Source: Candidatus Kuenenia stuttgartensis
GTDB lineage: Bacteria > Planctomycetota > Brocadiia > Brocadiales > Brocadiaceae
DNA: 32,000 nt
NCBI RefSeq assembly: GCF_900232105.1
Contig: NZ_LT934425.1
Location: 4,140,001 to 4,172,000, forward strand
Direction: 5' to 3'
The position numbers and the translations under genes are program-made. Positions 12,639 to 28,275 of the stretch are shown piece after piece. The notes beneath the pieces were generated by a model that saw only the letters and a program-made list of their open reading frames with translations, had not been told where the DNA came from and searched no databases. How positions within the stretch are numbered: the first letter of the stretch is position 1; the number at the start of each line of letters is the position of its first letter.

Positions 12639-14791
12639 AATACACCCCTTAAAGTCGTCTGTGTTTGAAGGCTGCAGAGCGATGAATTTATTTTGCCCTT
12701 ACCTTGTAAACTTATATTACAAAATAGTCTATGCCTTGTATTTCATTACTTGCCTGTTAGTAGTAACAAATTACATTTTTAAATCAGGGCATTTTTGCAT
12801 TATTCGGGAATTTCAGCAAATTTTGGGATTTTAGGGTGATAATATGATGAACAAAATGCTTGATTGATGATTATAAGTGTGCTACAATTCTGAATATTAA
12901 CCAATTAGCAAGCGCAAATACCTCTCAAATAGAAGGTATTTGACGGTATTATCAGTATTCAGCAAGAATATTACAAATGCATAATCATCATAATAACACC
13001 CTAATACATGGCAAACTTAATCTAGTTTCATATTTCAATAATCCTGTTTCACAAAGACAAAAACAATATGAAGCAGTAAGGGCCATTGTAATTGACAAAC
13101 AGGCAGTTGAGACTGTAGCAACAAAATTTGGTTACAAGCCAGGCACGGTTTATTCTTTAATGAGAGACGTTAATGCAGGGAAAATAGAACTTTTCCCTAT
13201 CGTGCGAAAGGGCCCTAAAAAGAAAAGGACTACTTGTGATGTTCAGGATAAAATTATCAAATACAGGAAACAGGGACTATCGACAACCGACATCCATAGC
13301 CGCCTTGCGGAAGAGGAGATCAATATATCTGCAATCACAGTAGAACGTATTCTGAAAACCGCAGGGTTCGGCAAACTAAAACGCAGAACGAATAATGAAC
13401 TTGGAAAAACTCTTAAAAACAAAATCATACCGGAACGTTCGGAACACCTGGATTTTGAGATACTCGAATATCTTAATGTGGATTGCCCCACGGCCGGGGT
13501 TTTCTTTTTTATCCCTTATATCATAGAATCCGGTATCCTTGATTTGTTGCAGGAATGTAAGTTGCCTGAATCAAGCGATATTGGATCGACGCAAGCCTGT
13601 CTTTCCATGTTACTGCTGAAATTAATAGGCGAGAGGAGGCTGACCCATATTTGTGCTTATGACCAGGAACCTGGCTTTGGAGTTTTTGCCGGATTAAACG
13701 TTCTTCCGAAGCCTACATACATGAACACCTATTCATGCCGTTGCTCTGAAACTCAGTTGATGAATTTGCAAAGCAAAGTTGTTTCGCTTTTCAGGAAAAA
13801 GTATCCGGACTTTTATAGTAGCGACTATATAAATCTTGATTTTCACTCGATCCCGCATTATGGGGATGAATCCGAAATGGAAAAGATCTGGTGTGGGTCT
13901 AAGGGTAAGACCATGAAAGGCGCTAATACCATCATTGCGTCTGATAGTAAAAGCAATGCAGTTTTATATACAAGAGCTGATATACTACGGCGCGAAGAGT
14001 CGCAAGAGGTTAAAAAGTTTGTAAGTTACTGGAAAAATATAAAAGGCAATGTTAGCGAAACACTTGTTTTTGATTGCAAGTTTACGGCTTACAATATCCT
14101 TGACGATCTTGAAAATGACAAGGTAAAGTTCATAACGCTTCGTAAACGTTATGCCGGCCTTGTGAAGGAAACATTGGTACTTCCAAAGGAGGTATGGAAA
14201 AAAGTTTATATTCCGGTTCCAAAGCGAAAGTATAAAAACGTCTCAGTTTATGAAAGCGAAGTCAGGCTTAAAGATTGTAAAAACATTTTCAGGCAAATAG
14301 TGGTGAAAGATCACGGACGGGAGAACCCTACATTTATTTTAACCAATAGCAAAGAGCTGTCCTTACAAAGGGTATTGGAAGTTTACGCTAAACGATGGCG
14401 GATAGAAAACAAAATAGCCGAACTGGTAATGTTTTTCAATCTGAACTCTCTGTCTTCACCTATTATGATCCGTATTCATTTTGACATTCTATGGACAATG
14501 ATTGCTGATACCCTGTATCATCGATTCGCATGCGACCTGAGACGTTTTGAAAATAATCTTGCCCCTGCAATATTCAGGAAGTTTATTGATATGCCGGGGA
14601 GGGTCGTTTATGACGGTGGTAAGTTTTTTGTGAAAATAAGAAAAAGAGCACATACTCCGGTTTTGATGGAAGTAAAAAAATTACAAACTCCATTCGCTGT
14701 TCCATGGCTTGGAGGAAAATCTATTGAAATTGTCTGGACGGCATGATTAGGGTGTTTTTATGATGGTTTTCATGCCTGTGAAAATCGGTGT
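12607..14791 (+). mobile_element. Unclassified DDE insertion sequence (called IS-B here), ~2.19 kb, apparently intact
   Basis: About 45-bp imperfect terminal IRs. The left end is ACACCGATTTTCACACACACATAAACCATCATAATACACCC (from 12607). The reverse complement of the right end is ACACCGATTTTCACAGGCATGAAAACCATCATAAAAACACCC (ending 14791). It has a single long transposase ORF. At most a 3-bp TTA direct repeat flanks it. Confidence 0.8.
12977..14746 (+). CDS. DDE transposase of IS-B (IS4-superfamily-like; family not assignable by eye)
   Basis: 589 aa with an N-terminal HTH region. Candidate catalytic residues are INLDFHSIPHYG, LVFDCKF and YAKRWRIENKIAEL (YxxRxxxE signature). It is homologous in architecture to the split ORFs at 16103-17409. 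Confidence 0.85.
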   Translation: MHNHHNNTLIHGKLNLVSYFNNPVSQRQKQYEAVRAIVIDKQAVETVATKFGYKPGTVYSLMRDVNAGKIELFPIVRKGPKKKRTTCDVQDKIIKYRKQGLSTTDIHSRLAEEEINISAITVERILKTAGFGKLKRRTNNELGKTLKNKIIPERSEHLDFEILEYLNVDCPTAGVFFFIPYIIESGILDLLQECKLPESSDIGSTQACLSMLLLKLIGERRLTHICAYDQEPGFGVFAGLNVLPKPTYMNTYSCRCSETQLMNLQSKVVSLFRKKYPDFYSSDYINLDFHSIPHYGDESEMEKIWCGSKGKTMKGANTIIASDSKSNAVLYTRADILRREESQEVKKFVSYWKNIKGNVSETLVFDCKFTAYNILDDLENDKVKFITLRKRYAGLVKETLVLPKEVWKKVYIPVPKRKYKNVSVYESEVRLKDCKNIFRQIVVKDHGRENPTFILTNSKELSLQRVLEVYAKRWRIENKIAELVMFFNLNSLSSPIMIRIHFDILWTMIADTLYHRFACDLRRFENNLAPAIFRKFIDMPGRVVYDGGKFFVKIRKRAHTPVLMEVKKLQTPFAVPWLGGKSIEIVWTA

Positions 14792-14797
14792 TTAAAA

Positions 14798-15849
14798 GAT
14801 GCGGAATTTCTTGACGAATTATTGCAGCAAATCCCTGAACATCGCATGCCCAGAGGCGTTCGCCACAGGAAACGTTCTATCCTGGCAATTTCTATCTGTG
14901 CTATCATCTGCAATGCCTGGAGCTTTGCCGCCATTGCAGAGTGGGCAAAGCGTTGTCCGCAAAATATGCTAAAACGTCTCTCCTGCCGTTATAATACAAA
15001 AACGAAACGATACGAACCACCGAGTGAACCTACCATCAGGCGTTTCTTACAGCAGGTGGATGCAGAAGCAGTTGATAAAGTCCTCTCGCGTTGGTTTCAA
15101 TCTGTAGGTGATAAAAGCCTGCCCATTGCGGTTGACGGGAAAACCCTTTGCGGTGCAAGACAGCCTGACGGCAAACAGGTACATTTGCTTGCCGCTTTTC
15201 TTCATAAACAGGGTATAGTTCTCGCACAAACTCAGGTAGACCGCAAAACAAACGAAATACCGATGGTTCCGGTATTGTTTGATGATTTAGACATAAAAGA
15301 CCGTGTCGTTACTTTCGATGCCTTACATGCGCAAAAGGAAACCGCCCGTTATCTGGTAGAAGACAAAAAGGCAGAATATATATTCACGGTGAAAGATAAT
15401 CAAAAAACCATAAAACAAGCCATCTAGGAACTGAATCTCAGTTCTTTTCCCCCCCTCAGCACGAAACAATTGAAAAAGGCCATGGCCGCATTGAAATCCG
15501 CAGGATTTGGACCAGCACCGAATTAAACGAATAACTTGATTTCCCCTACGTTAAGCAGGTATTTTGCATTCATAGAATATTTACAAAAGTCAAGACCGGC
15601 AAAAAGACCGAGGAAATTGTTTACGGTATTACCAGCCTGACACAACAAAAAGCAAGTCCCAAAACCATTCTTAAGTTTTCCCGCGGACACTGGTCAATAG
15701 AAAATGGACTTCATTATGTGCGTGATACCTCCTTCCGTGAAGACCATTCTCAAATACGCACACAAAATGCCCCAAGGGCAATGGCTTCTTTGAAGAACCT
15801 TGTGGTTGGGCTGTTTCATTTTCTCAATGTACCAAATATTACCGAGTAG
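14798..15849 (+). pseudogene. ISAs1-family transposase pseudogene (5'-truncated, nonsense plus frameshift)
   Basis: The ISAs1 pattern is present: FLDELLQQIPEHRMPRGVRHRKRSILAISICAIICN ... EKGHGRIEIRRIW ... SRGHWSIENGLHYVRDTSFREDHSQIR. There is no start codon (IS-B abuts at 14791). Defects are an in-frame TAG at 15425-15427, a frameshift in the C-run around 15449-15455, and an in-frame TAA in ELNE*LDF. Confidence 0.8.
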
Positions 15850-16102
15850 AAAACAGGCGCATTGCTAAACGTTTGAAACCTCTTTCATACTGAAGCGGAG
15901 GTATTTACTCAATCTCTTTTTAGTATGTTTCCTGTTCCCTCTCTAAAATTCCTTACGGTCAGAACCCAGGAAGTGCCTTTTTGGTCAAAAAGCATGTAAG
16001 CTATTGAATTGTGTAGAGATAGGTGTATATAGAGAGAAGGCATTGCCATACGTGGGTGGAAAATGATATGATCCCTTTTTTTCGGAGAAAGGGCGGGTAC
16101 TC

Positions 16103-16603
16103 ATGCCACAGTTAGTATTACCCCTATTTTCCCCTGACTGCAAACTGATAAATAATCAGGTAGGTTTTGAGAAAATAGGTAGCAAGATATATTATTTTCA
16201 CGGAAGACTTCCTGTGTTTAGTCATGAGGAAGACGACCTGGAATCATTTCGGTTCATCACCAGTCAATTAGTAGTCGGCGGTAATGTCAAGCAACAACAA
16301 ATAGTGAAGGCCTTCGGTGTTTCGGCAATAAGTGTTAAGCGTAGTGTAAAGCGGCTAAGAGAACATGGGCCTAAGGGATTTTTCCGTCAGTCAGCGCGAA
16401 CAAGGTCAGCCCATGTGCTTACGCCAGAGGTAAAAGCGAAGGTGCAAAAGTGCCTGGAAAGAGGGCAGAGTGTTTCAGAAACAGGTAAGAAGTTCAATAT
16501 CAAATCAAGTACGATTCACAAGGCAATCCAAAGCGGTCAGTTAGAGAAAAAAAAACGGCAGAAAGCGCTCCGGAGCAAAGAAACAAAAGTGAGCGTGCCG
16601 TAA
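16103..16603 (+). CDS. IS-C transposase, N-terminal HTH part (orfA)
   Basis: Two HTH-like segments (IVKAFGVSAISVKRSVKRLREHG; QSVSETGKKFNIKSSTIHKAIQSG). It ends shortly after an A9 run (16547-16555), where a -1 shift joins it to the downstream frame. Confidence 0.6.
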   Translation: MPQLVLPLFSPDCKLINNQVGFEKIGSKIYYFHGRLPVFSHEEDDLESFRFITSQLVVGGNVKQQQIVKAFGVSAISVKRSVKRLREHGPKGFFRQSARTRSAHVLTPEVKAKVQKCLERGQSVSETGKKFNIKSSTIHKAIQSGQLEKKKRQKALRSKETKVSVP

Positions 16604-16620
16604 CCGATAGTCGTGCTGGT

Positions 16621-17409
16621 ATGGGTCTTGGATGTACACGGGAACAAGAACGTGTAGAAGCCGCATTAGGTGGGCTTAATGAGGCAGTTCCGGCATTTGT
16701 TCCCGATCAGGACGTCAAATCGGCAGGGGTATTGTTTGCACTGCCGGCATTATTATTAAATGGTTTGCTAAAGTATGCAAACAACTATCTCTCATTTCCC
16801 AAAGGGTACTATGGATTACAATCGTTTCTGCTGCTACTGTCGTTTGCAGCCCTCTTAAGGATCAAATCACTGGAGGCAATTCGCTATTGTGAAGCTGGGG
16901 AATTGGGCAAGGCAATCGGGTTAGACCGTATACCTGAAATACGAACACTGCGCAAAAAAGTGAAATATATAACAAACCATGGCGAACCTGAGCAGTGGAG
17001 CAAAGAGTTATCAAAATACTGGATGGAAGAGGATCCGGAATTGGCCTGGATCCTTTACGTGGACGGCCATGTACGGGTATATAGCGGAAGCAAGACACCG
17101 TTACCGAAGCGGTATGTATCGAGGCAAAAGCTATGTTTAAGGGGTTTAACCGACTATTGGGTAAATGATGCAGTAGGTAAGCCATTTTTCGTGGTAAGCA
17201 AAGCGGTAAATCCCGGCTTGCTTTCGGTAATGAGAGAACAGATCATACCCCGGTTGCTCCGAGACATACCAAAGCAGCCTACCGGGGAAGAATTAAAAGC
17301 CAATCGTCATCTCTATCGCTTTGGTGTAGTATTTGACCGTGAGGGTTACAGTCCTGAGTTTTTCAAAGAAATGTGGGAGAAACGCATAGCGTGTTATACC
17401 TACAAAAAG
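16621..17409 (+). pseudogene. IS-C transposase, catalytic part (orfB), interrupted by IS66 insertion
   Basis: ILYVDGHVRVYSG and VVFDREGYSPEFF correspond to the first two acidic motifs of the IS-B transposase. The frame is open upstream to at least 16531. After in-silico removal of 17410-24331 it continues ...CYTYKK|YVNDVWPESEFIEKEVV. Confidence 0.65.
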
Positions 17410-17679
17410 GTAACTATTCAGCGAAAATAATTTAGAATTTACTTGACAGCAGAAATGTTACAAACAAGCAATTTACCTGGTAGTGTATGTATATGTTTGT
17501 AAATGCGTTAAAAACAGGCAGCAAGATGCCGTGCATAGAGACGTGTGTGGGGTCTGTTCAGTTATAGAATTTCGAGCCCTTGTGGTGTGTTATAGAGCGA
17601 AAGAAAAGGGTGAAAAAACCTGCAGTATAATAGATGCAGTAGATAATTTCAGGCTAATTATATATACAGGTATCATCCA

Positions 17680-18333
17680 TTGACGATAGAGAATATAGAC
17701 GTAGACGCAACACTCCAAAAAGTAGAGAAGCTGCTTTCAGAAGAGAAAGGGCTGTCACCGGCGGTGAGGTCAATGATAGAGTTGTTGGTATTATTGATAA
17801 CACTGCTGGTAGGACGTCTGAACCGGAACAGCCGCAACAGCAGCAAGCCTCCCTCAAGCGATCCGAATCGCAAGAAAGAAAGCAAGGCGAAGGGTGAAAG
17901 GAAGGCAGGCGGGCAAAAGGGCCGTGATGGAGTAACGCTCAAAAAGGTAGACAATCCTGATGAGGTGGAAGTAATAAAAGTAGACCGGAGGAAGTATCCG
18001 CGCAGCAAATACAAGGTGGTAGGTTACGAAGCACGCCAGGTGTTTGATATAAAGATTTCGCGTGTAGTGACGGAGTATCGTGCAGAGGTAGTAGAGGATG
18101 CGAAAGGGAATCGGATTGTAGCGTCATTTCCGGAAGGGGTAACAAAGGCGGTGCAGTATGGTCCGGATTTGAAAGCACATGCAGTCTATATGTCGCAGTA
18201 TCAATTGATACCCTACAAGAGGATACAGGAGTATTTTGAAGGGCAGATTGGGATACCGCTGAGTGAAGGTTCTATTTACAACTTTAACAGGGAAGCCTAC
18301 GAGTCATTGGAACCCTTCGATGTGAGAGCCAGG
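17680..18333 (+). pseudogene. IS66-family transposase, N-terminal half (split by transposon insertion)
   Basis: Leucine-zipper-like start and the IS66 signature NSRNSSKPPSSD. It ends ...LEPFDVRAR at the CCAGG target duplication. It has a TTG start. Confidence 0.85.
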
Positions 18334-18436
18334 TGCTAAGCCCCATAAGCGCTAACTTGTTTTATTGACAAATTTTATTCATCATGGTATTTTTATGTTA
18401 ATTATCCCGCTAATCACTCTATAGGAGGATAAAGCC

Positions 18437-19540
18437 ATGATGAGAGAAGATTGGGATCTTCTAAGAACTTTCTTCCCAAACGATTGGAAAAGTTTAGCCG
18501 TTGATACAAATGCTTTAAAAGGCTTGCGCAAGGATAAATCTGAAGAAAAGCTTCTTCGAACATTATTAATTCATTTAGGATGTGGCTATTCATTGCGTGA
18601 AACAGTAGTTCGAGCCAAGCGTGCTAACTTAGCAGATTTATCCGATGTTGCCTTATTAAAGCGATTAAAAAAGAGCAAAGAATGGCTATATAAATTATGT
18701 TTATCTTTATTCCGTGAGCGTGGCCTCCAAATTAATAAACGGAATAATTTTCATCTTCGCTTATTTGATGCAACAACAGTAAAGGAACCTGGGAAAACAG
18801 GAAGTCTTTGGCGCATTCATTATAGTATTGAGGTTCCTTCATTATCTTGCGATTTCTTTAAACTTACGGGAACTGAAGGAGAAGGCACAGGAGAATCTTT
18901 TCGGCAGTTTCCGATGAAAAAAGATGATTATATTATAGCTGACAGAGGTTACTGTACTGGCCAAGGAATTCATCATGCAACAAGGAAAGGCGCTTATCTT
19001 AGCGTTAGAGTTAATTCGCAATCTCTACGGATATTCGGCGAAGAAAAGAAACCCTTTCCTTTATTGAAAGAAATCCAATATTTAAAAAGACCCCTTGCTA
19101 TAAAATCATGGAACGTTTTTATTCCAAACGTTGATAATACTGAATATGTCAAAGGTCGTCTTTGTATAATACACAAAACAGAAGAAGCCATTAAAATAGC
19201 TCATAAAAAACTTAAAAGACATGCAAGCAAAAAGGGCATTGAACTAAAACCGGAGACCCTTATTTATGCCAAGTACGTAATAGTATTCACAACGTTTCCT
19301 GAAAATCAATTTACCGCTTTTGATATCTTAGAATGGTATCGAGTTCGATGGCAAATTGAACTGGTCTTTAAAAGATTTAAACAAATAGCACAATTTGGAC
19401 ACTTACCTAAATACGATGATGATAGCTCAAAAGCTTGGCTTTATGGCAAACTATTCGTTGCTCTTTTGACAGAAAAACTAATAGATTTTGCTACGTCTTT
19501 TTCCCCCTGGGGATACTTCATTGTCAAGCAAGAAGACTAA
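18437..19540 (+). CDS. IS4-superfamily DDE transposase (intact copy)
   Basis: 367 aa. It has the YREK-type signature YRVRWQIELVFKRFK and acidic motifs in LRLFDATT and IIADRGY. GGAGG lies 7 nt upstream of the ATG. Confidence 0.9.
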   Translation: MMREDWDLLRTFFPNDWKSLAVDTNALKGLRKDKSEEKLLRTLLIHLGCGYSLRETVVRAKRANLADLSDVALLKRLKKSKEWLYKLCLSLFRERGLQINKRNNFHLRLFDATTVKEPGKTGSLWRIHYSIEVPSLSCDFFKLTGTEGEGTGESFRQFPMKKDDYIIADRGYCTGQGIHHATRKGAYLSVRVNSQSLRIFGEEKKPFPLLKEIQYLKRPLAIKSWNVFIPNVDNTEYVKGRLCIIHKTEEAIKIAHKKLKRHASKKGIELKPETLIYAKYVIVFTTFPENQFTAFDILEWYRVRWQIELVFKRFKQIAQFGHLPKYDDDSSKAWLYGKLFVALLTEKLIDFATSFSPWGYFIVKQED

Positions 19541-19709
19541 AAGCAAATGGCGTGAATTTGCTTTTATGCTTAATCAAGTAAAACGGGCTATAGAACCAGC
19601 GTTATCATTACAGGAAGTTCTTAAGTGCTGGAATGACATTGCTTGTTCTTTAGCAGAAAATACAAGAATCCGAAAAACACAGATATCAAAATACTTCGAG
19701 CATACCTAA
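19488..19709 (+). CDS. Overlapping 73-aa ORF2 at the 3' end of the IS4-like element (function unknown, possibly not expressed)
   Basis: Conserved identically in copy 3 (28589-28810). It overlaps the transposase end in another frame, next to a TTTTCCCCCTGGGG run. It has no recognisable motif. Confidence 0.3.
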   Translation: MLRLFPPGDTSLSSKKTKSKWREFAFMLNQVKRAIEPALSLQEVLKCWNDIACSLAENTRIRKTQISKYFEHT

Positions 19710-19766
19710 AACAAGTTAGCGCTTATGGTGCTAAGCCCCACAATAAATGAACCTGGAATTCTCAGA

Positions 19767-20069
19767 TTAAGTGGAATTAATATATTGAGGTAAAACGGAT
19801 TTTAGCAGATAGACAGCATCTGGGAAAGAGGAGTTGGAATCTACCATGACGATGTCGATGGTATTAAAGTTTTTTTTACAACGGAAACACCTGGCGAGGT
19901 TCGTATTTGGGTTGGTGGCGGAATTAAATTCAGAACAGAGAGGGCAGAGGAAGCGGAAATAGCCTTCGGAGTATTTATGAGGTATGGAGAGGACATCAGC
20001 GATGAGTCGATCGATGGGGATATCGTTTCGTAATGAGCGCAAGAGTTGAGGGGAAAAGAGACGGGCCAT
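19767..20069 (-). CDS. Tn-X orf100: small primase-type (CHC2-like) zinc-finger protein
   Basis: IPIDRLIADVL...GYFRFLCPLCSEFNSATNPNTNLARCFRCKKNFNTIDIVM follows the spacing and flanks of the DnaG zinc-binding domain (CPxC ... CxRC ... D.I.F). AAGGAGGT lies 5 nt before the ATG. It is the last gene of the transposon. Confidence 0.65.
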   Translation of the reverse strand: MARLFSPQLLRSLRNDIPIDRLIADVLSIPHKYSEGYFRFLCPLCSEFNSATNPNTNLARCFRCKKNFNTIDIVMVDSNSSFPDAVYLLKSVLPQYINST

Positions 20070-20080
20070 GGTAGACCTCC

Positions 20081-20872
20081 TTAAAAAGATTGAATTTCAG
20101 CAAGAGCCTGATGGAAGATATCCTGGGTAATTTTCTGTGATTGTCTGATGGAAGCGTTAATCAGGCAGGCGGTGGAAATGGCGTTGATTTGCCTTGGGAT
20201 GCCGGCGGAGAACTCATGGATCAGGTCTTTGACGTCTGAGTCAAAGATTTTATCGGATGCGCCGGAAGATTTCAGATGGAAGTCTATGTATGCAGCGGTT
20301 TGAGTTTTAGTAAGGGGATGAATGTGGTAATGTACCGAGATGCGTTGTGCGAAGTCGGCATGGATGTCTCTTTTGAGGATATATTTGAGGTGTTCCTGTC
20401 CCGAGAGGATGATTTTGAGATGAGTGGAAGAATCAAGCGGAGAGCTGACAAGGAGTCTGAGGTCTGTGATGGCGTCGGTTTTCAGGAGATGAGCCTCGTC
20501 GATAACGATAATGGGAGTGAGATTTGAGCGCAAGGATTTATCCATAATTTGGAGGAAGAGCCGGTCTTTGGTGTGTTTTGGTATTTCACCGAGCTGGGAG
20601 ACGATTAAGGAGAGAAGGCTGGATGATTTTAGGTGGGTAAAATGGAGGTAGATGGGGAGAAACAGGTTTTGGGGGATTTGTGAGAGGAAGAGTTTGAGGA
20701 GTGTGGATTTTCCGACTCCCGTCTGTCCGTAGAGGACGGCGATAGAGCCTGAGTGTAAGAGGTATTGGAGTCGTGCAAGCCCCTGGGTAAAGCGTTCGTC
20801 TTTCATGATAAGGCTGGTGTTGATTCTTTCAGAGAACGGCTGAGTAGTCATGGAAAAATGAGAAGTAAACAT
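20081..20872 (-). CDS. Tn-X AAA+ ATPase (ExeA/TniB/MuB-like transposition helper)
   Basis: Walker A GQTGVGKST, Walker B IIVIDEAHLL, and the sensor region LSGQ. At 263 aa and placed directly after the transposase gene, it matches tniB or Tn552 p271. The SD AAGGAGG lies within the last codons of the upstream gene. Confidence 0.85.
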   Translation of the reverse strand: MFTSHFSMTTQPFSERINTSLIMKDERFTQGLARLQYLLHSGSIAVLYGQTGVGKSTLLKLFLSQIPQNLFLPIYLHFTHLKSSSLLSLIVSQLGEIPKHTKDRLFLQIMDKSLRSNLTPIIVIDEAHLLKTDAITDLRLLVSSPLDSSTHLKIILSGQEHLKYILKRDIHADFAQRISVHYHIHPLTKTQTAAYIDFHLKSSGASDKIFDSDVKDLIHEFSAGIPRQINAISTACLINASIRQSQKITQDIFHQALAEIQSF

Positions 20873-20874
20873 GG

Positions 20875-22435
20875 TTAAGAGACCTCCTTTTTCGAGTAAG
20901 CGATTTGTAATTCACGAATGATATAGGGTAAGGTTTTCACGGAGGCATTTTGGAATGCCTCCGTGAGCAATGATTCGTTGAGAGCGGGGATACGGTTGTA
21001 GCATTTTTTAAGCGATTCGAGTTCATGAGAGCTGAAGGCGGAGAGAGAGCCTTTGTGTCCCATGAGGAGTGCGAGTTTCTGGACGAATGCCATGAATGGC
21101 CAGGGTCGTTCGGAGATGATTTGGTGGTAATCAATGCCTTTGGCCTGAGCCTGGAGAATGGATTTGTGTTTCTGAGTGATAAGGTCGAGGTAATTATGTT
21201 TTGGTTTTGAAGGTGAGGCGGCTGGAGTTTCAGCGCCCTGGTCGCGCAGGTAGAGATTTCCCGAGCCGAGGTATTCACCGTTTGCGGAATAGATCAAGAC
21301 CTTTTTGAGATCGCCGTATGGGTCGTAACGGACTTCTACTTTATCGCCTCTGAGTTTGGGGTCAACACGGTAAAAGCGGTTATCAATGCGGACATCGGCA
21401 AAGGTTCTGTCAACGGTTCTGGGGATGCGTTTCATGAAGAAGGCAAGAGCGGCGTCCATATCGACGTGTCGGATGACGGTAAGCCCCTCGTCGTAGCGTT
21501 GTTTTGGAGATTGATTGGTTTCGGAGTGGATTCTTGCGTGATAGACAACGGCAAGGTAAGCGGAGAAGGCCTGGTTAATGGCATCAAGGGTGATAATGTC
21601 GCCGGAGCGGACTTCCGACTCGAACTATGTCTGGCTGGTGCCGAAGAAACGTTCGACCAGTCCGCCGGGAGCAGGGTCGCGTGGTGGTCTGTGGATGAGT
21701 TTAATGCCGAGGTTGTAACAGGCAGAGCGCAGGGCGTCAGAGTGGTAGACCTTGGCATTGTCGAGGTAGAGTTCTTTGGGCGAGCCGTGGATAGTCCAGG
21801 CCCTGATGAGAGAATCGATAAGGATATCGAGGGTTTGTTTGAGATAATACCGTCCTTCGACCACATAACGGCTGTAGCAGTCGATAAAGAGACAGAGGTT
21901 TGTGGGAAGCGCCTCGCCGTCAACGAGCACGAAAGGGCCTTCCTGGAAGTCGCCAATCCAGAGGTCGTGGGTATGCTCACGGCTAAGAGCGTATACGCAC
22001 CTTTTGCTGTGAGACGCCGAGTTTGAGCCGGGTCGCCCCTGCGAGTCTGAGATGGCGGTAGAGGGTGGATTTGGGGATCGTTTTCCCATAGTATTTCTCA
22101 AGAAAGCGGTTGAGGCAATCGTCGCTGCGGCGTGGTTGTTCTTTTTTGAGTTCAACGGCTTTGTCGATAATTTCAGGAGAAAACCTTCTGGATGCGCCAC
22201 GGTCGCTCCTCGCCTTTCTTGCAAGAGATTGAAATCCATCTTTGCGGTAGCGGTTGAGTTTTCTCCTGAGGGTAGAGATAGTGGGTCTTTTCCGCTTTCC
22301 GTTGGGGAATACGACCTCCTGAAGGCAGAGTTTTTTCAGAAAAAGGTTGGTCTGCTCCTTCTCAATCTCACCGAAGATGACAGGATGCAGAAGATTGCAC
22401 CAGAATAAAGCCCATTTTTCGTCTTTCGATTTCAT
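20875..22435 (-). pseudogene. Tn-X transposase (HTH + rve/DDE core + Mu-transposase-type C-terminal domain), inactivated
   Basis: The three tracked ORFs (21983-22435, 21625-22239, 20875-21459) are pieces of one ~520-codon gene. The core motifs are LWIGDF, LFIDCYSR, LYLDNAKVY and GGLVERFF. There is a 1-nt frameshift near 21990 (..QQKVRIR / LSREHTHDLW). A single in-frame TAG at 21625-21627 separates FFGTSQT from FESEVRSGDIITL.... Confidence 0.85.
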
Positions 22436-22438
22436 AAT

Positions 22439-22466
22439 TCACCTCCTTTTTTAAGTGTGGAGGTGA
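22439..22466 (-). promoter_or_regulatory. SD-sequestering hairpin in front of the Tn-X transposase gene
   Basis: The mRNA reads UGA(orf212 stop, 22476-22474)-GUUACAA-UCACCUCC-ACACUUAAAAAA-GGAGGUGA-AUU-AUG(22435). The 8-bp perfect stem pairs the whole Shine-Dalgarno with an anti-SD placed 7 nt after the upstream stop codon. Confidence 0.5.
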
Positions 22467-22473
22467 TTGTAAC

Positions 22474-23112
22474 TCAAGACCAGCCGCTTTTTGTTGCCAG
22501 TTCGGGGAAAAATGAATGCCCAAAAATTCGGTGATATTCCGGCTCGGCGCTGAACAATTGAATCGATTGATCGAGGGAGGTTTTTCGTTGTTTGCTTTTA
22601 TACTTTCCGTGGTAAATGGGAAACATTTGGCGAAAAACCGGAGAGTTGGGGTCGGCCTGCCTGATGAGGTCAAAGGCGTTGCGGAGTGTGTATTTCAGTG
22701 AGCCAAAGAAACGCAGCCACCTCCAAACGGTTGACCAGGCAAGCATGCGGTTGTCTATTTCCTGTGTTCGGGTAGTATATCCGATGGCAGAGGAGACACT
22801 CCGGTAGGTTTCTGTATCATCTTTGACATAAGCCTGACTGAAGGAGAGACAGTGATCCTTTACGTACCGCTTGTAAGGGAGCGCATACTCAGGATAGGAA
22901 GTAAACGTCTTCTTGCACAAGGAACATTTCCAACGTCCCAGGAAAGATTCTATCGTATGAACAAGGGAGTCGATAATAACGTGAAACAACCGATATCTGC
23001 ATTCATGAAGGGTGAAATTGACATGGGTACTCTTGCACTTTGGACAAAAGCATGGCTTCTGTTTTGTCGCAATAAGCTTTTCATGCTTGTGGATTTTTTC
23101 TATAATATTCAC
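22474..23112 (-). CDS. Tn-X orf212: zinc-ribbon protein of unknown function (DUF6431-like by recollection)
   Basis: CFCPKCKSTH...(35 aa)...WKCSLCKKTFTSYPEYALPYKRY forms two CxxC pairs. It has a GTG start with GGAGG 6 nt upstream. It is the first gene of the transposon. Confidence 0.7.
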   Translation of the reverse strand: MNIIEKIHKHEKLIATKQKPCFCPKCKSTHVNFTLHECRYRLFHVIIDSLVHTIESFLGRWKCSLCKKTFTSYPEYALPYKRYVKDHCLSFSQAYVKDDTETYRSVSSAIGYTTRTQEIDNRMLAWSTVWRWLRFFGSLKYTLRNAFDLIRQADPNSPVFRQMFPIYHGKYKSKQRKTSLDQSIQLFSAEPEYHRIFGHSFFPELATKSGWS

Positions 23113-23193
23113 GCACTGCCTCCTTTGTATAGGGGGGAAATGGGCAGGAGGATGAAGTTTCCCAACGTTCGGTCCTCCTGCCCTGAGTTTTTT
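23113..23193 (+). ncRNA. Candidate ~80-nt antisense RNA covering the orf212 translation-initiation region
   Basis: Plus-strand promoter-like TTTTCA (23078-23083), a 17-bp spacer, then TATAAT (23101-23106). The transcript would contain CCTCC (23119-23123), complementary to the orf212 SD. It would end at an 11-bp GC-rich hairpin GGGCAGGAGGA/TCCTCCTGCCC (23142-23152 / 23173-23183), followed by TGAGTTTTTT. Confidence 0.35.
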
Positions 23194-23523
23194 ATGTTCC
23201 GGAAAAATCTTACAAAACTTGTCCTCGTGAAAACGGGGAACTGGGAAGTAAACCGCCGTTAGGAAGTTTGGAAGTGGTTTTAACCCCTTCCAAACTATTT
23301 AATGAGGCTTTACTCCGCCTTACGGACGTAACTTCTTTCTAACGGGGTAAACGATGTATTTTTCTTAACGTGAACAAAAAATCAAGTGAAATACTTACGC
23401 AGGATAAAAAAAAGGCGGGGTAGCTGGGTAAGATTTTTCAAATCATTTGCTGGGTATTAGACTCAAATATTCTGAGACTAATTGGGCATTTTTGGAGCAT
23501 TTATTCTAAGACGTAGCACCAGG

Positions 23524-24291
23524 GAAGAACTTGCAAAATCAGAGGTGATGCATGTGGATGAAACTAGTATCAACAAGAATGGAGACAGGTATTGGTTGCA
23601 CAGTGCATCCAATAGTTTGTGGACGTACTTTTTCCCGCATGAAAGACGTGGAACAGAAGCGATAAATAGTATCGGGATATTACCTGAATTTAAGGGGATT
23701 CTTTGCCACGACCATTTGAAGTCGTATTACACCTATAGCAACTGTACGCATGCGTTGTGTAATGCACACCACTTGAGGGAATTGGATGGTGTGTGGGAAG
23801 ATGATAATAAGCAGGAGTGGGCGAAAGAGATGAAAGCATTACTTAAAGAGATAAACCGTGCGACGAGTGATGCCGGGGGAATGCTGGGAACTGATGAGTC
23901 AGAAAAATACCGGCAAAGGTATAGGAAGATACCCCAAAACGCAGAAGCCGAAAGCCCTCCTCCTGATGAAACGAACCGTAAGGGAAAAAGGGGGAGGGTA
24001 AAAAGGACAAAGGCACGGAATCTTCTGGAACGATTGAGGACGTATGAGGGTGATGTGCTGAGGTTTATGGACAATAAAAATGTCCCCTTTACGAACAATT
24101 TAGCAGAAAACGATATCAGGATGACGAAGGTTCAGCAGAAGATATCTGGTTGTTTTCGTTCTTTGGAGGGAGCGAAAATTTTCTGCCGCATCCGGAGTTA
24201 TCTCTCGACCTGTCGAAAGCAAGGGGTAAATTTGAGTCGGGCATTACAGATGCTATTCCGTGGCGAATTGCCTGATTTTGCTAGCTCGTAG
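23524..24291 (+). pseudogene. IS66-family transposase, C-terminal half
   Basis: It reads EELAKSEVMHVDETSINKNG...WLHSA...CNAHHLREL...NNLAENDIRMTKVQQKISGCFRS, the IS66 DDE core. It is in frame with 17680-18333 once 18334-23523 is removed. Confidence 0.85.
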
Positions 24292-24382: not shown

Positions 24383-26578
24383 CTTAACCCAACTTCGACA
24401 AGCAGAAATCGTATCTCTTTTATTGCCAATGTGATACGACTTTAGTCCTTCATTTTTCGGCACTACATCTTTGAGTTTTCATGGGTGATTTTATATTTTT
24501 TCTGCCTAATGGTGTATGTTTAATTTGTAGTTTATTGTAAATCGTGTGCTGCTTTTCCGTGGGCGCTGTGCAGGTTCTGACGGCAATAACGCAGCCGTCC
24601 TTTGTGTTCATGGTCGTTGTTACCCTTATATGGGTGGCAAGGATATTACGAATCGTATTCCAATTATAATGAACCCCTGCGGTTCTTAGCTTTTTTAATA
24701 TCCCGGCAAGTATGTGATAGGCCAATACAGTGACATGCACGTGGGCAATGGTTGGGGTATCTGTGTGGTGAAAGTTTGGCCGTAAACCAAGGTTGCCTTT
24801 CATTGTTTTAAAACTTTCCTCAACAGTACTCAACGACCTATGGAGCTTTGATATCTCTTCCCCGCTAAGATCAAGTCGGTTTGTCCGTAATATAGTCAAA
24901 CAAGTCAGGTTTTTGAAACTTAAACCGGCAAATGCAGGCGATTCGCACTACATTTTTAGAAAATCAGAAGCTTTTGGCTATACATACGTGCCTATGGCTT
25001 CTTCCTTTGCTTGCGCCTGAGCATTTTTCTTAAATTTGATATCGGTCGCTTTGCCATCCGTCTGTTCCACTTTGATCGTATATAAATTGCCCACCTTGTA
25101 GCGTTCTTTTAACCGGCCTATCCTCTCTATGATCGTATCATATTTTTTCTGTCTTTTTGGCTTCTCTAATCCTTCTTTTATTGCCGAGAGCGCCTCTTCA
25201 AACCTTTGTTCTTTCAGGGAAAGGATGGACTTCTCTTTTGCCTCTTTTGCCTCTTTTGCCTCGCTGTGGCATAAAAGGAATGCCTCTTCTTCAGTACGGA
25301 CTAATTTCATGCCCAACGTTGTTTTCCCGTCTGATAACATAATCTTCTCTTCGTCCGTTTCAGGCCAAAAAGTATCTTCAAAAGATTTCTTGCGCGAGAC
25401 GACCACATATTTATAGCCACTCTTCCTGATAAGCGCAATGTTCTCTTCCGTTGCTATCCCCGCGTCCATAACAATCGTTCTATCATTTGAAAACATACCG
25501 TCTTCTTTTTTTAATCCATCCAAAATATCTTTTAGGGTACCAGGCTCCGACACATTGCCCTCAAAAACCTTGCTCTGCTTGGGAAATCCCTCTTCATCAA
25601 CGGTAAGGGATAGCGTAATTAACGGACAATCATTACGGCTCTCTTTTGATTTGTAGCGCCGGGCCACCTTACTCCCTCTTTTGCTACCCTCAAAATAGGT
25701 ATTTGTTAAATCATATAAAATCACCGTCTCTTTAAGGGAAAATATCTCTCGCGCCCGCTTTGACAACTCTTGCTCTATGGCGGCATGATTCTCCCAAAGC
25801 AAGACTGCCGCGCGATGCAGCGCTTTATCATACAGTTTAACCCCGGAGTCCAACAGCTCTCCCGCCCCGCTTGTTTCAGAAAGCCATCGCACGGTATCAC
25901 GCTCGCTGCCGGGATGAACCATTCTCCCCACAATGAGCATCTTGGAATAGGCAATCTGGTCATCTGTAAAATCAAGCCCTTGCAATATCTTATCAAACCC
26001 GTATTCATTCATTTGGCTTATGGCCACGTGTTCGGCGCCTACGGTCTTTGCATCATTTGTTATCAGGGAATTAATATTCACGTGCTCGTATTGAGCAGGT
26101 TCTTCCCCTGCTGATTCACCGCCGGTAATACGTTCTTGCGCCCTGTCCAACCGCTCCTGTCTTATCTGGCTGGCATAATGCCTTGCTTTCGCCTCTATTT
26201 CAGGATCTTGAGTAAACAATGTTTTTTGATTTGCTAAAAATCCTTCAATGCAATTGGCAAGGGTCTTCCACTTCTCCTCGGGCAGACTAAGCTGCCCAAG
26301 GTTTAAGACTATTTGCTGTCTTGGCCCTGAAGGGGTGCGAATGGATTCGATGAGTTGGTGTTGTATGTAGCTCTTCCCGCCATTCACTTTTTTGATCTTT
26401 TCACGGATAAACACACCGGTATTTTACCATGTAAGCAATGGCGCCGCAAGCATAAACAATAATATTCAGGCACTACATTAAACGCCGAAAGCAACATTCA
26501 ACCATACCAATAGGTTACGACTATTACATGCTCAATTTCTTGCCTTTTTCAGGATAAATTTGTCGAAGTTGGGTTAAG
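24383..26578 (-). mobile_element. IS1634-family insertion sequence (2196 bp)
   Basis: 19-bp perfect IRs CTTAACCCAACTTCGACAA (24383-24401) and their reverse complement (26560-26578). The transposase begins MFIREKIKKVNGGKSYIQHQLIESIRTPSGPRQQIVLNLG, typical of IS1634. No flanking direct repeat is visible. Confidence 0.85.
24450..26414 (-). pseudogene. IS1634-family transposase with two in-frame amber codons
   Basis: The tracked ORFs 24978-26414 and 24450-24899 are in the same frame. The 84 nt between them read ...GTYV*PKASDFLKM*CESPAFAGLSFKNLTCLTILRTNR..., with TAG at 24978-24980 and 24948-24950. Confidence 0.85.
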
Positions 26579-26619
26579 GCAGCATGTGGAAATACAGTCT
26601 CTATTTTCTTTAAAAAGCA

Positions 26620-26686
26620 GGGGCGAAGCATTTGTCCGGTTAGGTATGAACGCATTTATGACAATTTTTAGCAAATGCTTCGCCCC
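26620..26686. repeat. Long-stem palindromic element, GGGGCGAAGCATTTG family (copy 1)
   Basis: 15-bp perfect arms GGGGCGAAGCATTTG (26620-26634) and CAAATGCTTCGCCCC (26672-26686) with a 37-nt loop. The conserved flanks AAAAAGCA and TACAAT are shared with the copy at 28276-28386. Confidence 0.75.
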
Positions 26687-26713
26687 TACAATATGCGTGG
26701 CAAATTATTGTTT

Positions 26714-27079
26714 TTATCTCGGCTTTTTATTCTTTTTGAAAAGGTCCAATATTTTTCCAGTGTTTGAGGATTTTTTTATGAGTGAAGTTATTGCCGCCCC
26801 CCATGGGTTCGTTATGACAAACCCTGCGATTACTGCCGTGGCAATAACGCCGCCTATGCCCATCAATCCCAGCATCTTCCTGAGTTTTTTCTGATCTACG
26901 TCTTTATTATCAACCAATTGCTTCAGCGCAATGAGCTGTTCTTCCTGTGTATAATCAGGCTGTGAAATGCCGCTTTCCCACCTGCTCACTGTTGAAAAGC
27001 TGATTCCCAATGCCTTTGCAAACTCGGACTGGGTTGCTCCCAGTTTTTCACGAAGTTCCTTAATTTCTTTTGCACCCAT
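26714..27079 (-). CDS. XRE-family HTH transcriptional regulator with C-terminal membrane anchor
   Basis: The Cro/C1 HTH is LREKLGATQSEFAKALGISFSTVSRWESG. The hydrophobic segment MLGLMGIGGVIATAVIAGFVITNPWGAAITSLI is followed by a basic tail. Confidence 0.8.
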   Translation of the reverse strand: MGAKEIKELREKLGATQSEFAKALGISFSTVSRWESGISQPDYTQEEQLIALKQLVDNKDVDQKKLRKMLGLMGIGGVIATAVIAGFVITNPWGAAITSLIKKSSNTGKILDLFKKNKKPR

Positions 27080-28228: not shown

Positions 28229-28275
28229 AATCACACTCCTTTTTTGGCAACAATTTATTTTTTTAGAAAAAGCAT

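Follow-up and report, generated by a model that had tools for sequence, protein, structure and literature searches.

A 3.8-kb transposon of an uncategorised family, interrupted by a nested IS4-family element, within an IS66-family transposase gene of Candidatus Kuenenia

We analyzed a 32,000-nucleotide stretch of a Candidatus Kuenenia genome (the window) and found that the insertion at 18334-23518, inside an IS66-family transposase gene, is the result of two nested events. A transposon of 3,790 bp (3.8 kb) inserted into the IS66 gene first, and an IS4-family insertion sequence (IS) later inserted into one end of the transposon. The transposon belongs to a large, widespread, and barely studied family that is so far uncategorised. 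As judged from sequence comparison, three proteins make up the core of this family: a zinc-ribbon/HTH protein of the DUF6431 type, a DDE transposase that resembles IS481 and carries a Mu-type C-terminal barrel, and an AAA+ ATPase of the ExeA type. This clade adds a free-standing primase-type zinc-binding domain (ZBD). An initial annotation had described 18334-23518 as a compact, precisely read single unit; it is instead a transposon plus a second, nested IS. The features are the following:

17680-18333, plus strand: interrupted IS66-family transposase gene, 5' part (Pfam DUF6444, and DDE_Tnp_IS66 profile positions 2-56)
18329-18333, no strand: left CCAGG, 5-bp target-site duplication, with the same pentamer at 23519-23523 (sequence)
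18334-18344, no strand: outermost 11 bp of the orf100-side transposon end, TGCTAAGCCCC, repeated at 19729-19739 within the 13-bp duplication of the IS
18345-19726, plus strand: nested IS4-family IS, 1,382 bp (find_repeats-type repeat pair, sequence, NCBIfam transpos_IS4_1)
19740-19773, no strand: remaining part of this end (orf100 side), with the last bases of the 25-bp terminal inverted repeat at 19740-19753 and a second end-motif copy at 19759-19773
19767-20069, minus strand: orf100, predicted stand-alone primase-type ZBD with four cysteines (C42, C45, C61, C64)
20081-20872, minus strand: AAA+ ATPase of the ExeA/GspA type, 263 aa (Pfam AAA_22, 75.7 bits)
20875-22435, minus strand: tnpA, transposase pseudogene (six-frame reading; Pfam HTH_32, rve, and Mu-transpos_C)
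22474-23112, minus strand: orf212, predicted DUF6431-family protein with a C4 zinc ribbon (C23, C26, C63, C66), then a helical/HTH-like region
23464-23518, no strand: orf212-side transposon end; terminal inverted repeat 23494-23518, ending ...TAGCA (sequence, motif scan)
23519-23523, no strand: right CCAGG, target-site duplication (sequence)
23524-24291, plus strand: interrupted IS66-family transposase gene, 3' part (Pfam DDE_Tnp_IS66 profile positions 59-283, E 2e-39)

The outer limits drawn by the initial annotation were confirmed: CCAGG lies on both sides, and removal of the insertion with one CCAGG, which fuses 17680-18333 to 23524-24291, restores the frame of a single open IS66-family ORF. 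Gene calls and Pfam also supported the four genes reported there, including the rve transposase with its Mu C-terminal domain and the AAA+ ATPase. All four (orf212, transposase, AAA_22 ATPase, and orf100) are co-oriented on the minus strand, and a GGAGG-type sequence precedes each, in agreement with the strong Shine-Dalgarno sequences described. The nested IS is a fifth gene in the interval, absent from that annotation.

The IS lies 11 bp inside the left (orf100-side) end of the transposon. It has perfect inverted repeats of 20 bp, ATAAGCGCTAACTTGTTTTA, and a transposase ORF (18437-19540, 367 aa) that scored 163 bits against NCBIfam transpos_IS4_1 (cutoff, 115). Insertion of the IS duplicated 13 bp, GGTGCTAAGCCCC (18332-18344 and 19727-19739), across the IS66/transposon junction; further copies of the IS are present in the window at 1-957 and 28572-31081. 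Because the IS is nested 11 bp inside the end, the left 25-bp repeat as first read was partly IS sequence and agrees with the right end at only about 11/25 positions. The true left end consists of 18334-18344 plus 19740-19753, restored as TGCTAAGCCCCACAATAAATGAACC, and 17 of its 25 positions agree with the right end. The transposon is indeed richer in GC than the rest of the window (47.3% versus 41.0%), but the contrast first reported (about 50% versus 35%) was overstated: the 35% "host" value was partly a reading of the nested IS, since that 35% stretch is the IS itself (35.4% GC).

Uninterrupted copies elsewhere prove the corrected boundaries independently. At least 10 other Kuenenia loci carry the reconstructed 3,790-bp sequence in one piece (99.8-100% identity), and in ten other copies the 11 bp at 18334-18344, here severed from the remaining end by the IS, are joined directly to 19740 onward. 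Relatives keep the orf100-side terminus, ...ATTGTGGGnCTTAGCA, and the orf212-side end is conserved in loci L001 and L002. A motif scan identified an approximately 15-bp motif with two copies per end, at positions 7-21 and 31-45 from the orf100-side end and at 23498-23512 and 23464-23478 on the orf212 side. This repetition is statistically weak, with 5 motifs observed, about 1 expected, and a shuffle maximum of 4.

The window copy of the transposon is dead, with a frameshift and an in-frame TAG in tnpA and a severed end. The tnpA lesions were defined by DNA alignment to the intact gene of relative L003: one extra base lies near 21987, the N-terminal frame stops at 21983-21985, and TAG at 21625-21627 replaces the CAG found at that codon in L003. 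Six-frame reading and this alignment both agree with the frameshift and TAG originally noted. If repaired, the product would be about 520 aa, with a DDE triad (D165, D228, E264) that is invariant in the protein alignment and a C-terminal extension of about 130 aa after Mu-transpos_C.

The same frameshift is present in 11/11 Kuenenia copies (at least 10 loci in at least 4 assemblies), while orf212, the ATPase gene, and the ZBD gene are intact in every one. A simple autonomous-element model does not explain a frameshift common to all copies at different loci. Conceivably, the Kuenenia lineage is alive and ...CGC UCU UAG C... serves for programmed +1 recoding, which would supply full-length transposase in low, regulated amounts; we regard this as quite unlikely. 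In this site, as in known +1 sites, a stop comes after a sense codon; the site is identical in all 11 copies next to three intact genes, and its difference from L003 is more than a simple indel, comprising three substitutions as well as the insertion. However, there is no Shine-Dalgarno-like stimulator at prfB spacing, a shift from UCU to CUU permits no re-pairing, and relatives use a single ORF. A four-gamete pattern among the Kuenenia copies reveals gene conversion, by which an inactive allele could have spread. In addition, a copy with the extra TAG is found at two loci (the window and L092), which favours mobilisation in trans over recoding.

Six of 9 Kuenenia copies have no duplication, and neither do 3 of the 22 distant ones; in one case, two inverted copies have visibly exchanged flanks. 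The duplication-less copies are consistent with replicative transposition or with later recombination, and homologous recombination explains them equally well.

Copies lacking the frameshift and TAG, which the initial annotation had proposed seeking, were found among relatives but not among the 11 Kuenenia copies. Relatives at 80-88% identity have all four genes intact, according to gene calls (L003 and L109) or tblastn (L001 and L108). Distant multicopy relatives with four intact genes occur in Desulfobacterota, including Desulfoferrobacter suflitae (9 copies, 99.9% identity), a delta-proteobacterial MAG (10 copies), and Desulfobacterium (at least 3), and comparison of their sequences showed that they appear to have been recently active. 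Gene order in these copies is unchanged, with termini T(G/C)CTA...TAGCA. Duplications flank 19/22 of them, 6 bp long in 14 copies, 7 bp in 4, and 5 bp in 1, with no consensus among the duplicated target sequences. The relatives have the termini of the Kuenenia transposon in common with it, and their duplications are 5 to 7 bp long, mostly 6. Both small zinc proteins are part of the element, with sequence and gene position kept in dozens of relatives. The DUF6431-transposase-ATPase order was also found on plasmids of Bacillota, Actinomycetota, and Betaproteobacteria.

We compared the transposon with named systems, and membership in Tn402/Tn5053, Tn552, Tn7, IS21, or IS481 was rejected. The Tn402-like label of the initial annotation proved too close. 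Like Tn5053/Tn402 (tniA, tniB, tniQ, tniR), the transposon has an rve and Mu-transpos_C transposase followed by an AAA+ ATPase, and its approximately 25-bp ends and 5-bp duplication at this locus resemble those described for a Tn402-like element (PMC4739549). However, the match to TniA-type genes, which thousands of plasmids carry, is confined to residues 175-388, the catalytic core, at about 28% identity, whereas the match to DUF6431-linked transposases extends over 84% of the length (about 31% identity). The modal duplication in the new family is 6 bp, not 5, and there is no apparent res-site targeting. As the initial annotation stated, no TniQ/TnsD-size protein, TnsA, or resolvase was found among the ORFs and Pfam matches of the element; a res site is lacking as well.

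The ATPase has Walker A (GQTGVGKS) and Walker B (IVIDEAH) motifs and scored 142.8 bits against TIGR03015, under the cutoff of that model. Pfam and NCBIfam profile searches found no TniB or IstB domain in it, and a PDB sequence search gave no match. Tn552 (p480, p271, BinL) encodes a transposase and an ATPase of about 270 aa, makes 6- to 7-bp duplications, which those seen here resemble, and has multiple transposase-binding repeats in its ends. The Kuenenia transposon differs in its much shorter terminal repeats, the missing resolvase, and two extra zinc proteins. It is most improbable that the transposon is a Tn402/Tn5053 (tniABQ-R) or Tn552 member that lost its resolvase and TniQ: TniB, TniQ, and resolvase Pfam matches are absent, orf212 is unlike the TniQ structures in the PDB, and active relatives retain all four genes, conserved and intact, which means that no gene has been lost.

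IS481 and IS3 elements move by copy-out-paste-in transposition. A mechanism of this type, via a circular intermediate and with the ATPase and zinc proteins as helpers as in IS21, is an unlikely alternative that several observations nonetheless fit. The best curated NCBIfam model for tnpA is IS481 (E 2e-36), PGAP gives the homologs in pGS18 and Tn6049 the name "IS481 family transposase," the ends are TG...CA, no resolvase is present, and the majority of copies are simple insertions, each with a clean duplication. But the IS481 score, 125.9 bits, is far under the cutoff of 224. IS21 (IstA/IstB) is likewise a compact unit with an HTH and rve transposase, an AAA+ helper, and duplications of variable length, yet its model scored only 43 bits (cutoff, 160), and the Kuenenia transposon has no IstB-type domain, a Mu-type C-terminal barrel, and two more genes. 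In a phmmer search of the PDB with TnpA, TnsB was the sole match besides retroviral integrases (ShCAST TnsB, E 4e-6).

The initial annotation did not recognise the architecture as a named transposon. This holds only in part: the DUF6431-transposase-ATPase order is annotated on many plasmids, and a single relative with a name was found, the distant Tn6049 of Cupriavidus metallidurans CH34, whose transposition module "could not be categorized" according to the literature. All four genes of Tn6049 (3.5 kb, 12 copies; the compared copy, on pMOL28, is L091 22251-25778) point the same way, and their order is as in Kuenenia: first a small protein rich in cysteine (CxxC...CxxC and a W-rich helix), then a DDE transposase resembling IS481, an ExeA/"GspA" AAA_22 ATPase, and a short ORF. 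It is similar in size, has short terminal inverted repeats and a duplication of 4-5 bp, and is also multicopy and frequent in islands or other mobile elements. The transposases are 24% identical (E 2e-20) and the ATPases 20% (E 9e-13). Tn6049 differs in its ends (TGTGC...GCACA versus TGCTA...TAGCA), in a first ORF without detectable DUF6431, in the absence of a Mu-transpos_C match, and in its fourth ORF, a cysteine-free acidic protein of 71 aa in place of the primase ZBD.

Unnamed modules on plasmids of Geobacillus (pGS18), Clostridium estertheticum, Streptomyces, Rhodococcus (pRHL3), and Cupriavidus necator (pBB2) share the three-gene order and the domains of its products, and no description of them was found in the searched literature. 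Their transposases align over about 84% of the length at about 27-31% identity, have the invariant DDE triad, and lack the approximately 130-aa C-terminal extension. Their fourth gene is missing or unrelated, e.g., DUF6618 on the Clostridium plasmid.

We consider it probable that the nested history, an uncategorised family, and Mu-like replicative transposition with ATPase-mediated target capture together explain this locus. The 3,790-bp transposon entered the IS66-family gene, duplicating CCAGG, and the IS later entered 11 bp inside its end, duplicating 13 bp. We infer the replicative mechanism by analogy with MuA/MuB, TnsB/TnsC, TniA/TniB, and Tn552 p480/p271. Phage Mu and type V-K CAST (TnsB/TnsC/TniQ) likewise pair a DDE transposase with an AAA+ ATPase acting on target DNA, and TnsA-less Tn7-like/CAST elements, whose TnsB is the best non-retroviral PDB match, also lack a 5'-end nuclease, which predicts replicative products. 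The Kuenenia transposon differs in not being a phage, in having no TniQ, Cas, or guide RNA, and in its accessory DUF6431 protein and primase ZBD. In the proposed reaction, the transposase would bind the repeated approximately 15-bp motifs at both ends and nick the 3' CA termini; ATP-bound ATPase would capture target DNA and pass it to the transposase; and the cut ends would be joined to the target at positions staggered by 5-7 bp, most often 6. Because there is neither a TnsA-like second nuclease nor a resolvase, the product is expected to be a Shapiro intermediate, which host replication would finish, and cointegrates would be resolved by host recombination.

The initial annotation had pointed to structure prediction for the two small proteins. 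Orf100 scored 26.3 bits against Pfam Zn_ribbon_DnaG (cutoff, 24.9), and its AlphaFold2 model (pLDDT 91.8) best matched the DnaG zinc-binding domain 1d0q in Foldseek (TM 0.76, probability 1.0), which establishes its predicted fold as a free-standing primase ZBD. Orf212 scored 21.4 bits against Pfam DUF6431, under the cutoff of 26.6 (the D. suflitae ortholog scored 28.9), but profile-profile matching to annotated plasmid DUF6431 proteins (96% probability, E 3.5e-9) established the homology at the sequence level. Its AlphaFold2 model (pLDDT 90.8) had no match below E 0.2 in a PDB structure search.

The DUF6431 protein may be a core DNA-binding adaptor or regulator, and the ZBD may connect the reaction to host priming/replication machinery or to forked or single-stranded DNA. 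Alternatively, orf212, orf100, or both could be a repressor or passenger, e.g., interfering with host or phage replication, although a role outside transposition seems improbable. The fourth gene does vary by clade: it encodes the ZBD here and DUF6618 in the Clostridium plasmid, and in Tn6049 and the C. necator element its place is taken by short acidic ORFs. A 61%-identical ZBD gene occurs in a second multicopy element that is otherwise unrelated. Against this, orf212-type genes are universal in the family, always first in the operon and closely spaced with tnpA. The orf100 gene begins 11 bp past the ATPase gene and has a strong Shine-Dalgarno sequence of its own, and its product is the best conserved of the four proteins (59-69% identity across elements, in the order ZBD > TnpA > ATPase > orf212). 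Its homologues form more than 961 clusters, and the ZBD is present in hundreds of elements of about 4 kb that carry no other cargo.

The transposon at 18334-23518 has decayed; it belongs to a widespread, recently active family that has no described mechanism and is distantly related to Tn6049. A second element lies within the same interval. The transposon splits an IS66-family transposase gene, as read from the sequence, and CCAGG abuts it on both sides (18329-18333 and 23519-23523). Deleting the insert and one CCAGG fuses 17680-18333 with 23524-24291 into a single open reading frame, and the two gene halves cover consecutive segments, 2-56 and 59-283, of the IS66 profile in Pfam. For these reasons, the outer boundaries in the initial annotation are correct. 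That annotation had described a single compact transposon; the transposon is real, but its interior was misread because a nested IS4-family insertion sequence (IS) was overlooked. Searching for repeats revealed an inverted pair of 33 nt (18332-18364 versus 19707-19739), which on base-by-base reading comprised the IS, its inverted repeats, and a direct duplication.

Nested element within the transposon
18345-19726, IS4-family IS, 1,382 bp, located by repeat search and sequence
Termini of the IS, 20-bp perfect terminal inverted repeats, ATAAGCGCTAACTTGTTTTA
Target duplication of the IS, 13 bp, direct, on both sides, GGTGCTAAGCCCC

The 367-aa transposase of this IS passes the NCBIfam IS4 model (163 bits; cutoff, 115). 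Its 13-bp duplication bridges the IS66/transposon junction, consisting of the GG of CCAGG and the outermost 11 bp of the transposon, so the IS is younger than the transposon insertion. We rejected the 25-bp inverted repeat in its original form, as the left end enters the nested IS after 11 bp, is mostly IS, and matches the right end at only about 11 of 25 positions. After reconstruction, the true left end (18334-18344 joined to 19740-19753, TGCTAAGCCCCACAATAAATGAACC) and the other end (TGCTACGTCTTAGAATAAATGCTCC) do match over about 25 bp, at 17 of 25 positions. Ten other loci carry the 3,790-bp reconstruction uninterrupted and gapless, at 99.8 to 100% identity. The complete genome CP049055.1 has six of them, two further Kuenenia assemblies have three between them, and a JGI metagenome contig has one. 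These copies are independent proof of the reconstruction, and the host is Candidatus Kuenenia. The transposon is richer in GC than its surroundings, as had been noted, but the estimate of 50% versus 35% becomes 47.3% versus 41.0% for the remaining window; the nested IS has 35.4%.

The transposon has four genes, all on the minus strand and separated by 38, 2, and 11 bp. A GGAGG Shine-Dalgarno sequence precedes all four, in line with the strong sites first described.

Genes of the transposon
22474-23112, minus strand, orf212, C4 zinc ribbon (C23, C26, C63, C66) followed by a helical region
22435-20875, minus strand, tnpA, transposase pseudogene with HTH_32, rve, and Mu-transpos_C domains (Pfam)
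20872-20081, minus strand, ATPase gene, AAA_22, ExeA/TIGR03015-like, with Walker A and Walker B motifs
20069-19767, minus strand, orf100, Pfam Zn_ribbon_DnaG, four cysteines as zinc ligands

As annotated, orf212 and orf100 are two small zinc proteins, a C4 zinc ribbon and a primase zinc domain, respectively. The orf212 protein, which carries a conserved STVWRW motif in its helical region, scored 21.4 bits against Pfam DUF6431, under the cutoff of 26.6, and the Desulfoferrobacter suflitae ortholog passed at 28.9. A profile of the orf212 family matched annotated DUF6431 proteins with 96% probability (E value of 3.5e-9), several of which also have helix-turn-helix (HTH) hits. The AlphaFold2 model (pLDDT, 90.8) had no Foldseek match below an E value of 0.2 in the PDB, TniQ structures included; the weak top matches were NrdR and the ISCth4 transposase. 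Because of this result, the model indicates that orf212 is not TniQ-like, and we rejected a short TniQ, for which there was also no Pfam hit. The model of orf100, a stand-alone primase zinc-binding domain (ZBD), reached a pLDDT of 91.8, and its fold overlays that of 1d0q, the zinc-binding domain of DnaG (TM score, 0.76; probability, 1.0).

Residues D165, D228, and E264 of TnpA are invariant in an alignment of seven homologs, and its best nonretroviral PDB sequence match is ShCAST TnsB (E value of 4e-6). In the ZBD-bearing clade, TnpA has a C-terminal extension of about 130 aa (residues about 390 to 520; 20875-21270) containing RPWPF...ELE.LKK.YN. The extension has no Pfam hit, is absent from Bacillota and Actinomycetota relatives in the alignment, and might be where the ZBD or the ATPase docks. 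The ATPase matched neither TniB nor IstB in Pfam, and no sequence in the PDB.

Each end of the Kuenenia element has two copies of a motif of about 15 bp, which suggests multiple transposase-binding sites, with weak statistics. A 406-bp noncoding leader runs from the transposon end to orf212 and contains an imperfect 33-nt inverted repeat (23247-23314; 76% complementary, 2-nt loop); a stretch of the leader, at transposon positions of about 164 to 301, is not conserved among relatives. An Rfam scan of the whole window gave no match, and promoter and terminator scans over 19700-23560 gave nothing informative.

The initial annotation had placed the element with Tn402/Tn5053, Tn552, and Tn7 on the basis of a transposase with rve and Mu C-terminal domains and an AAA+ ATPase. 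That core is present, but membership of all three is excluded. Plasmid TniA-type genes share these domains but align to TnpA residues 175 to 388 alone, the catalytic core (about 28% identity; E value of about 1e-9). Pfam detected no TniB in the ATPase at an E value of ≤0.01, only AAA_22 and generic P-loop families, and no TniQ in any open reading frame (ORF). We found no serine resolvase (TniR/TniC) in 19740-23518 or in intact relatives. The ends point neither way: Tn402/Tn5053 has 25-bp inverted repeats and a strict 5-bp duplication, and the Kuenenia element has about 25 bp and 5 bp, with mostly 6 bp in relatives. Judged by gene and domain content, Tn402/Tn5053 is excluded because TniB, TniQ, and a resolvase are missing and the TniA match is limited to the core. 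By the same kind of comparison, Tn7 is excluded because there is no TnsA, TnsD, or TnsE: no ORF or domain for a TnsA endonuclease adjoins the transposase, neither TniQ nor TnsD is present as target selector, and insertion sites are diverse, without a consensus. ORF reading and Pfam thus agree with the initial annotation that TniQ/TnsD, TnsA, and a serine resolvase are lacking. Tn552 encodes the resolvase BinL, with a res site, and has long terminal repeats of about 116 bp. The Kuenenia element has no resolvase ORF, and its ends are alike over about 25 bp plus one subterminal motif; the missing resolvase and short inverted repeats argue that Tn552 is excluded as well. Curated-model scores far under their cutoffs likewise exclude IS481 and IS21. 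The best curated model for TnpA is IS481, at 125.9 bits versus a cutoff of 224, and IS481 is a single-ORF element of about 1 kb, compared with four genes in 3.8 kb here. The IstA model of IS21 scored 43.1 bits versus a cutoff of 160, with no IstB_IS21 hit.

The order of the first three Kuenenia genes (DUF6431, then an HTH-rve-Mu_C transposase and an AAA_22 ATPase) is annotated, co-oriented and tightly spaced, on plasmids of Geobacillus (pGS18), Clostridium, Streptomyces, Rhodococcus, Mycobacterium, and Cupriavidus necator (pBB2). These plasmid elements have no ZBD, and their fourth gene is absent or unrelated. The architecture had initially been taken to match no named transposon. The ZBD-bearing clade is indeed undescribed in the literature covered, but the search surfaced one named element with the same four-gene layout, Tn6049 of Cupriavidus metallidurans CH34, reported as 3.5 kb in 12 copies, each with a "gspA" ATPase gene, and with a transposition module that "could not be categorized." The pMOL28 copy is 3,528 bp and encodes a Cys-rich small protein, an IS481-like transposase, a GspA/ExeA-like ATPase, and a short ORF (181, 479, 277, and 71 aa, respectively), compared with 212, about 520, 263, and 100 aa in the 3,790 bp of the Kuenenia element. 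Its duplication is 5 bp, and 4 bp has been reported for Tn6049 in pHS87a. The transposases are 24% identical (E value of 2e-20) and the ATPases 20% identical (E value of 9e-13). The first ORF of Tn6049 is not significantly similar to orf212, merely reminiscent of it in a CxxC...CxxC pattern and a W-rich helix, and the fourth is unrelated to the ZBD. The termini also differ (TGTGCATAAGCA and TGCTCACGCACA in Tn6049; TGCTA...TAGCA in the Kuenenia element). We considered the fourth ORFs of Tn6049, the C. necator element, and the Clostridium element (DUF6618) as diverged ZBDs and rejected them, as they showed no similarity. Given this distant similarity, sequence comparison makes Tn6049 a named but distant and uncharacterized precedent for the architecture, and the ZBD-bearing clade a new variant. 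The search, which covered the literature, found no description of the family, and in that literature the accessory set of DUF6431 and a stand-alone primase zinc domain is undescribed.

The frameshift and TAG first read in tnpA are both present: the window copy has an extra base near 21987 and TAG at 21625-21627, where relatives have CAG. A search for copies free of both had been suggested. Copies free of the TAG exist, as it is confined to the window copy and one other (locus L092). The one-base frameshift, at CGC-UCU-UAG-C (21983-21990), is shared by all 11 Kuenenia copies (the window copy and those at L092-L099, L106, and L107; at least 10 loci in at least 4 assemblies); the relatives are intact. 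No unframeshifted Kuenenia-type tnpA was found, and a metagenome scan across the site returned one contig, likewise frameshifted. The other three genes are intact in every Kuenenia copy. The shared frameshift possibly reflects mobilization in trans by an unseen intact copy, or a dead allele may have been spread by gene conversion; a four-gamete pattern indicates that such conversion has occurred among the Kuenenia copies. A third possibility, +1 recoding, has nothing positive in its favor.

At least 8 of the 10 Kuenenia copies examined (the window copy and those at loci L092-L099 and L106) sit within or next to transposase genes of other ISs: IS66, IS110 (twice), and DDE_Tnp_1/_1_4 (several times). 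This association is commoner than in Desulfobacterota relatives. The duplication is kept in only 3/9 Kuenenia copies. The sequence CTTCAC is common to the left flank of L098 and the right flank of L093, which implies an inversion between these copies, about 1.3 Mb apart in CP049055.1.

Relatives at loci L003, L109, L001, and L108 have 80 to 88% DNA identity, four intact genes, a TnpA of 519 to 520 aa, and the same termini. With the orf212 profile, 808 representatives of clusters at 50% identity were retrieved, and with the ZBD search >961 clusters at 90% identity. Members have been seen in Desulfobacterota, Planctomycetota, Bacteroidota, and other phyla, with more distant relatives on plasmids of Bacillota, Actinomycetota, and Betaproteobacteria. 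Homologs of orf212 and orf100 sit mostly on 3.5- to 4.5-kb contigs, as is usual when multicopy repeats collapse. A scan of species-representative genomes gave 269 loci, and three genomes had multiple near-identical copies.

Genomes with multiple near-identical copies
Desulfoferrobacter suflitae DRH4, 9 copies, 99.9% identity, 4,321 bp
Deltaproteobacterial MAG, 10 copies, about 99.9% identity, 3,693 bp
Desulfobacterium MAG, 3 or more copies, 99.0 to 99.7% identity, about 4,250 bp

The family has been recently active in at least three genomes, with elements of 3.7 to 4.3 kb. The D. suflitae copies encode proteins of 230, 518, 263, and 95 aa plus an extra opposite-strand SEC-C/TPR ORF, probably a passenger gene; in the copy at locus L016 it lies at 2321-2929, minus strand, between the element end and the DUF6431 gene. 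Family termini follow T(G/C)CTA(A/C)GTC..ACAATA..TG ... CA..TATTGTG.GAC(T/G)TAGCA. Direct duplications flank 19 of 22 copies (6 bp, n = 14; 7 bp, n = 4; 5 bp, n = 1), and the 5-bp CCAGG, annotated correctly, falls inside this range. The 19 duplicated sequences have no consensus. Targets in relatives are diverse (P-type ATPase, CorA, IS transposases, integrases, and a conjugation gene), and no sequence-specific target was obvious across the family. Protein identity between elements is highest for the ZBD (59 to 69%), followed by TnpA (50 to 64%), the ATPase (42 to 57%), and orf212 (34 to 42%). A 1,886-bp contig binned as Nitrospira (L008), with an orf100 gene 100% identical to that of the window, is probably a Kuenenia repeat placed in the wrong bin. 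A 3,544-bp contig from a Methanophagaceae archaeon/ANME-1 bin (L045) has a 65% identical ZBD gene, reflecting either cross-domain spread or a binning artifact.

A second multicopy element type in Desulfobacterales (L021, 5231-9553; L066, 5355-9512) carries a 61% identical ZBD gene near its 5' end, and this type accounts for about half of 80 loci from the scan of species-representative genomes. Besides the ZBD it encodes proteins of 219, 176, 563, and 222 aa; the 222-aa protein is weakly AAA_22-like, and the 563-aa protein had no family or PDB match. Its ends are TGATAGGATGCAAATAGTGTAACGC. We rejected this element as a relative of the Kuenenia element, as the ZBD alone is similar and the other proteins are not detectably so; it may represent a further, undescribed family of transposons.

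By analogy with Mu, Tn7, Tn5053, and Tn552, TnpA would assemble on the repeated end motifs, nick the 3' CA ends, and join them to the target with a 5- to 7-bp stagger, and the ATP-bound ATPase would capture the target and activate TnpA. As the element lacks a 5'-end nuclease and a resolvase, completion by replication would be expected, then resolution by host recombination. Copies without a duplication (3/22 distant relatives and 6/9 Kuenenia copies) are compatible with replicative transposition and also with plain homologous recombination; the inverted copies 1.3 Mb apart show one flank exchange. The DUF6431 protein, which is universal, comes from the first gene of the operon and evolves fastest, a pattern that would fit a DNA-binding adaptor or regulator. 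The ZBD, the slowest-evolving protein and the one shared with the second multicopy element, would fit a host-conserved partner, e.g., replication-fork DNA, DnaB, or DnaG.

A more speculative proposal, which we hold to be rather doubtful, is that the ZBD is a new type of transposition factor, used on at least two unrelated backbones to couple strand transfer to host priming and replication, with the DUF6431 protein replacing TniQ in a distinct heteromeric family. The ZBD could recognize forked or single-stranded DNA as the target or, alternatively, act on DnaG/DnaB in trans and so set off replication of the Shapiro intermediate, and the fast-evolving DUF6431 protein would stand in for TniQ as adaptor to the AAA+ ATPase. 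If true, this family would stand alongside Mu, Tn7, Tn5053, Tn552, and IS21. Target choice and target immunity are best understood in transposons that combine a DDE transposase with an AAA+ ATPase (Mu, Tn7/CAST, Tn5053, Tn552, and IS21), which also serve as the chassis for CRISPR-guided integration tools. The present family is widespread and has a different accessory set; knowing the roles of its DUF6431 protein and primase-like domain would fill a gap in the understanding of target selection and replication engagement and would also classify Tn6049-like elements.

The surroundings of the transposon (12977-17430 and 24450-29384) form an IS island.

Other mobile-element features of the window
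12977-14746, 14822-15427, 24978-26414, and 28758-29384, DDE_Tnp_1 genes
16103-17430, HTH ORF and truncated Transposase_29 gene
29552-30589, IS630-family ORF with DDE_3 and HTH domains

Further copies of the IS4-family IS lie at 1-957 and at 28572-29477 plus 30602-31081, the latter split by a 1.1-kb IS630-family element (29478-30601).
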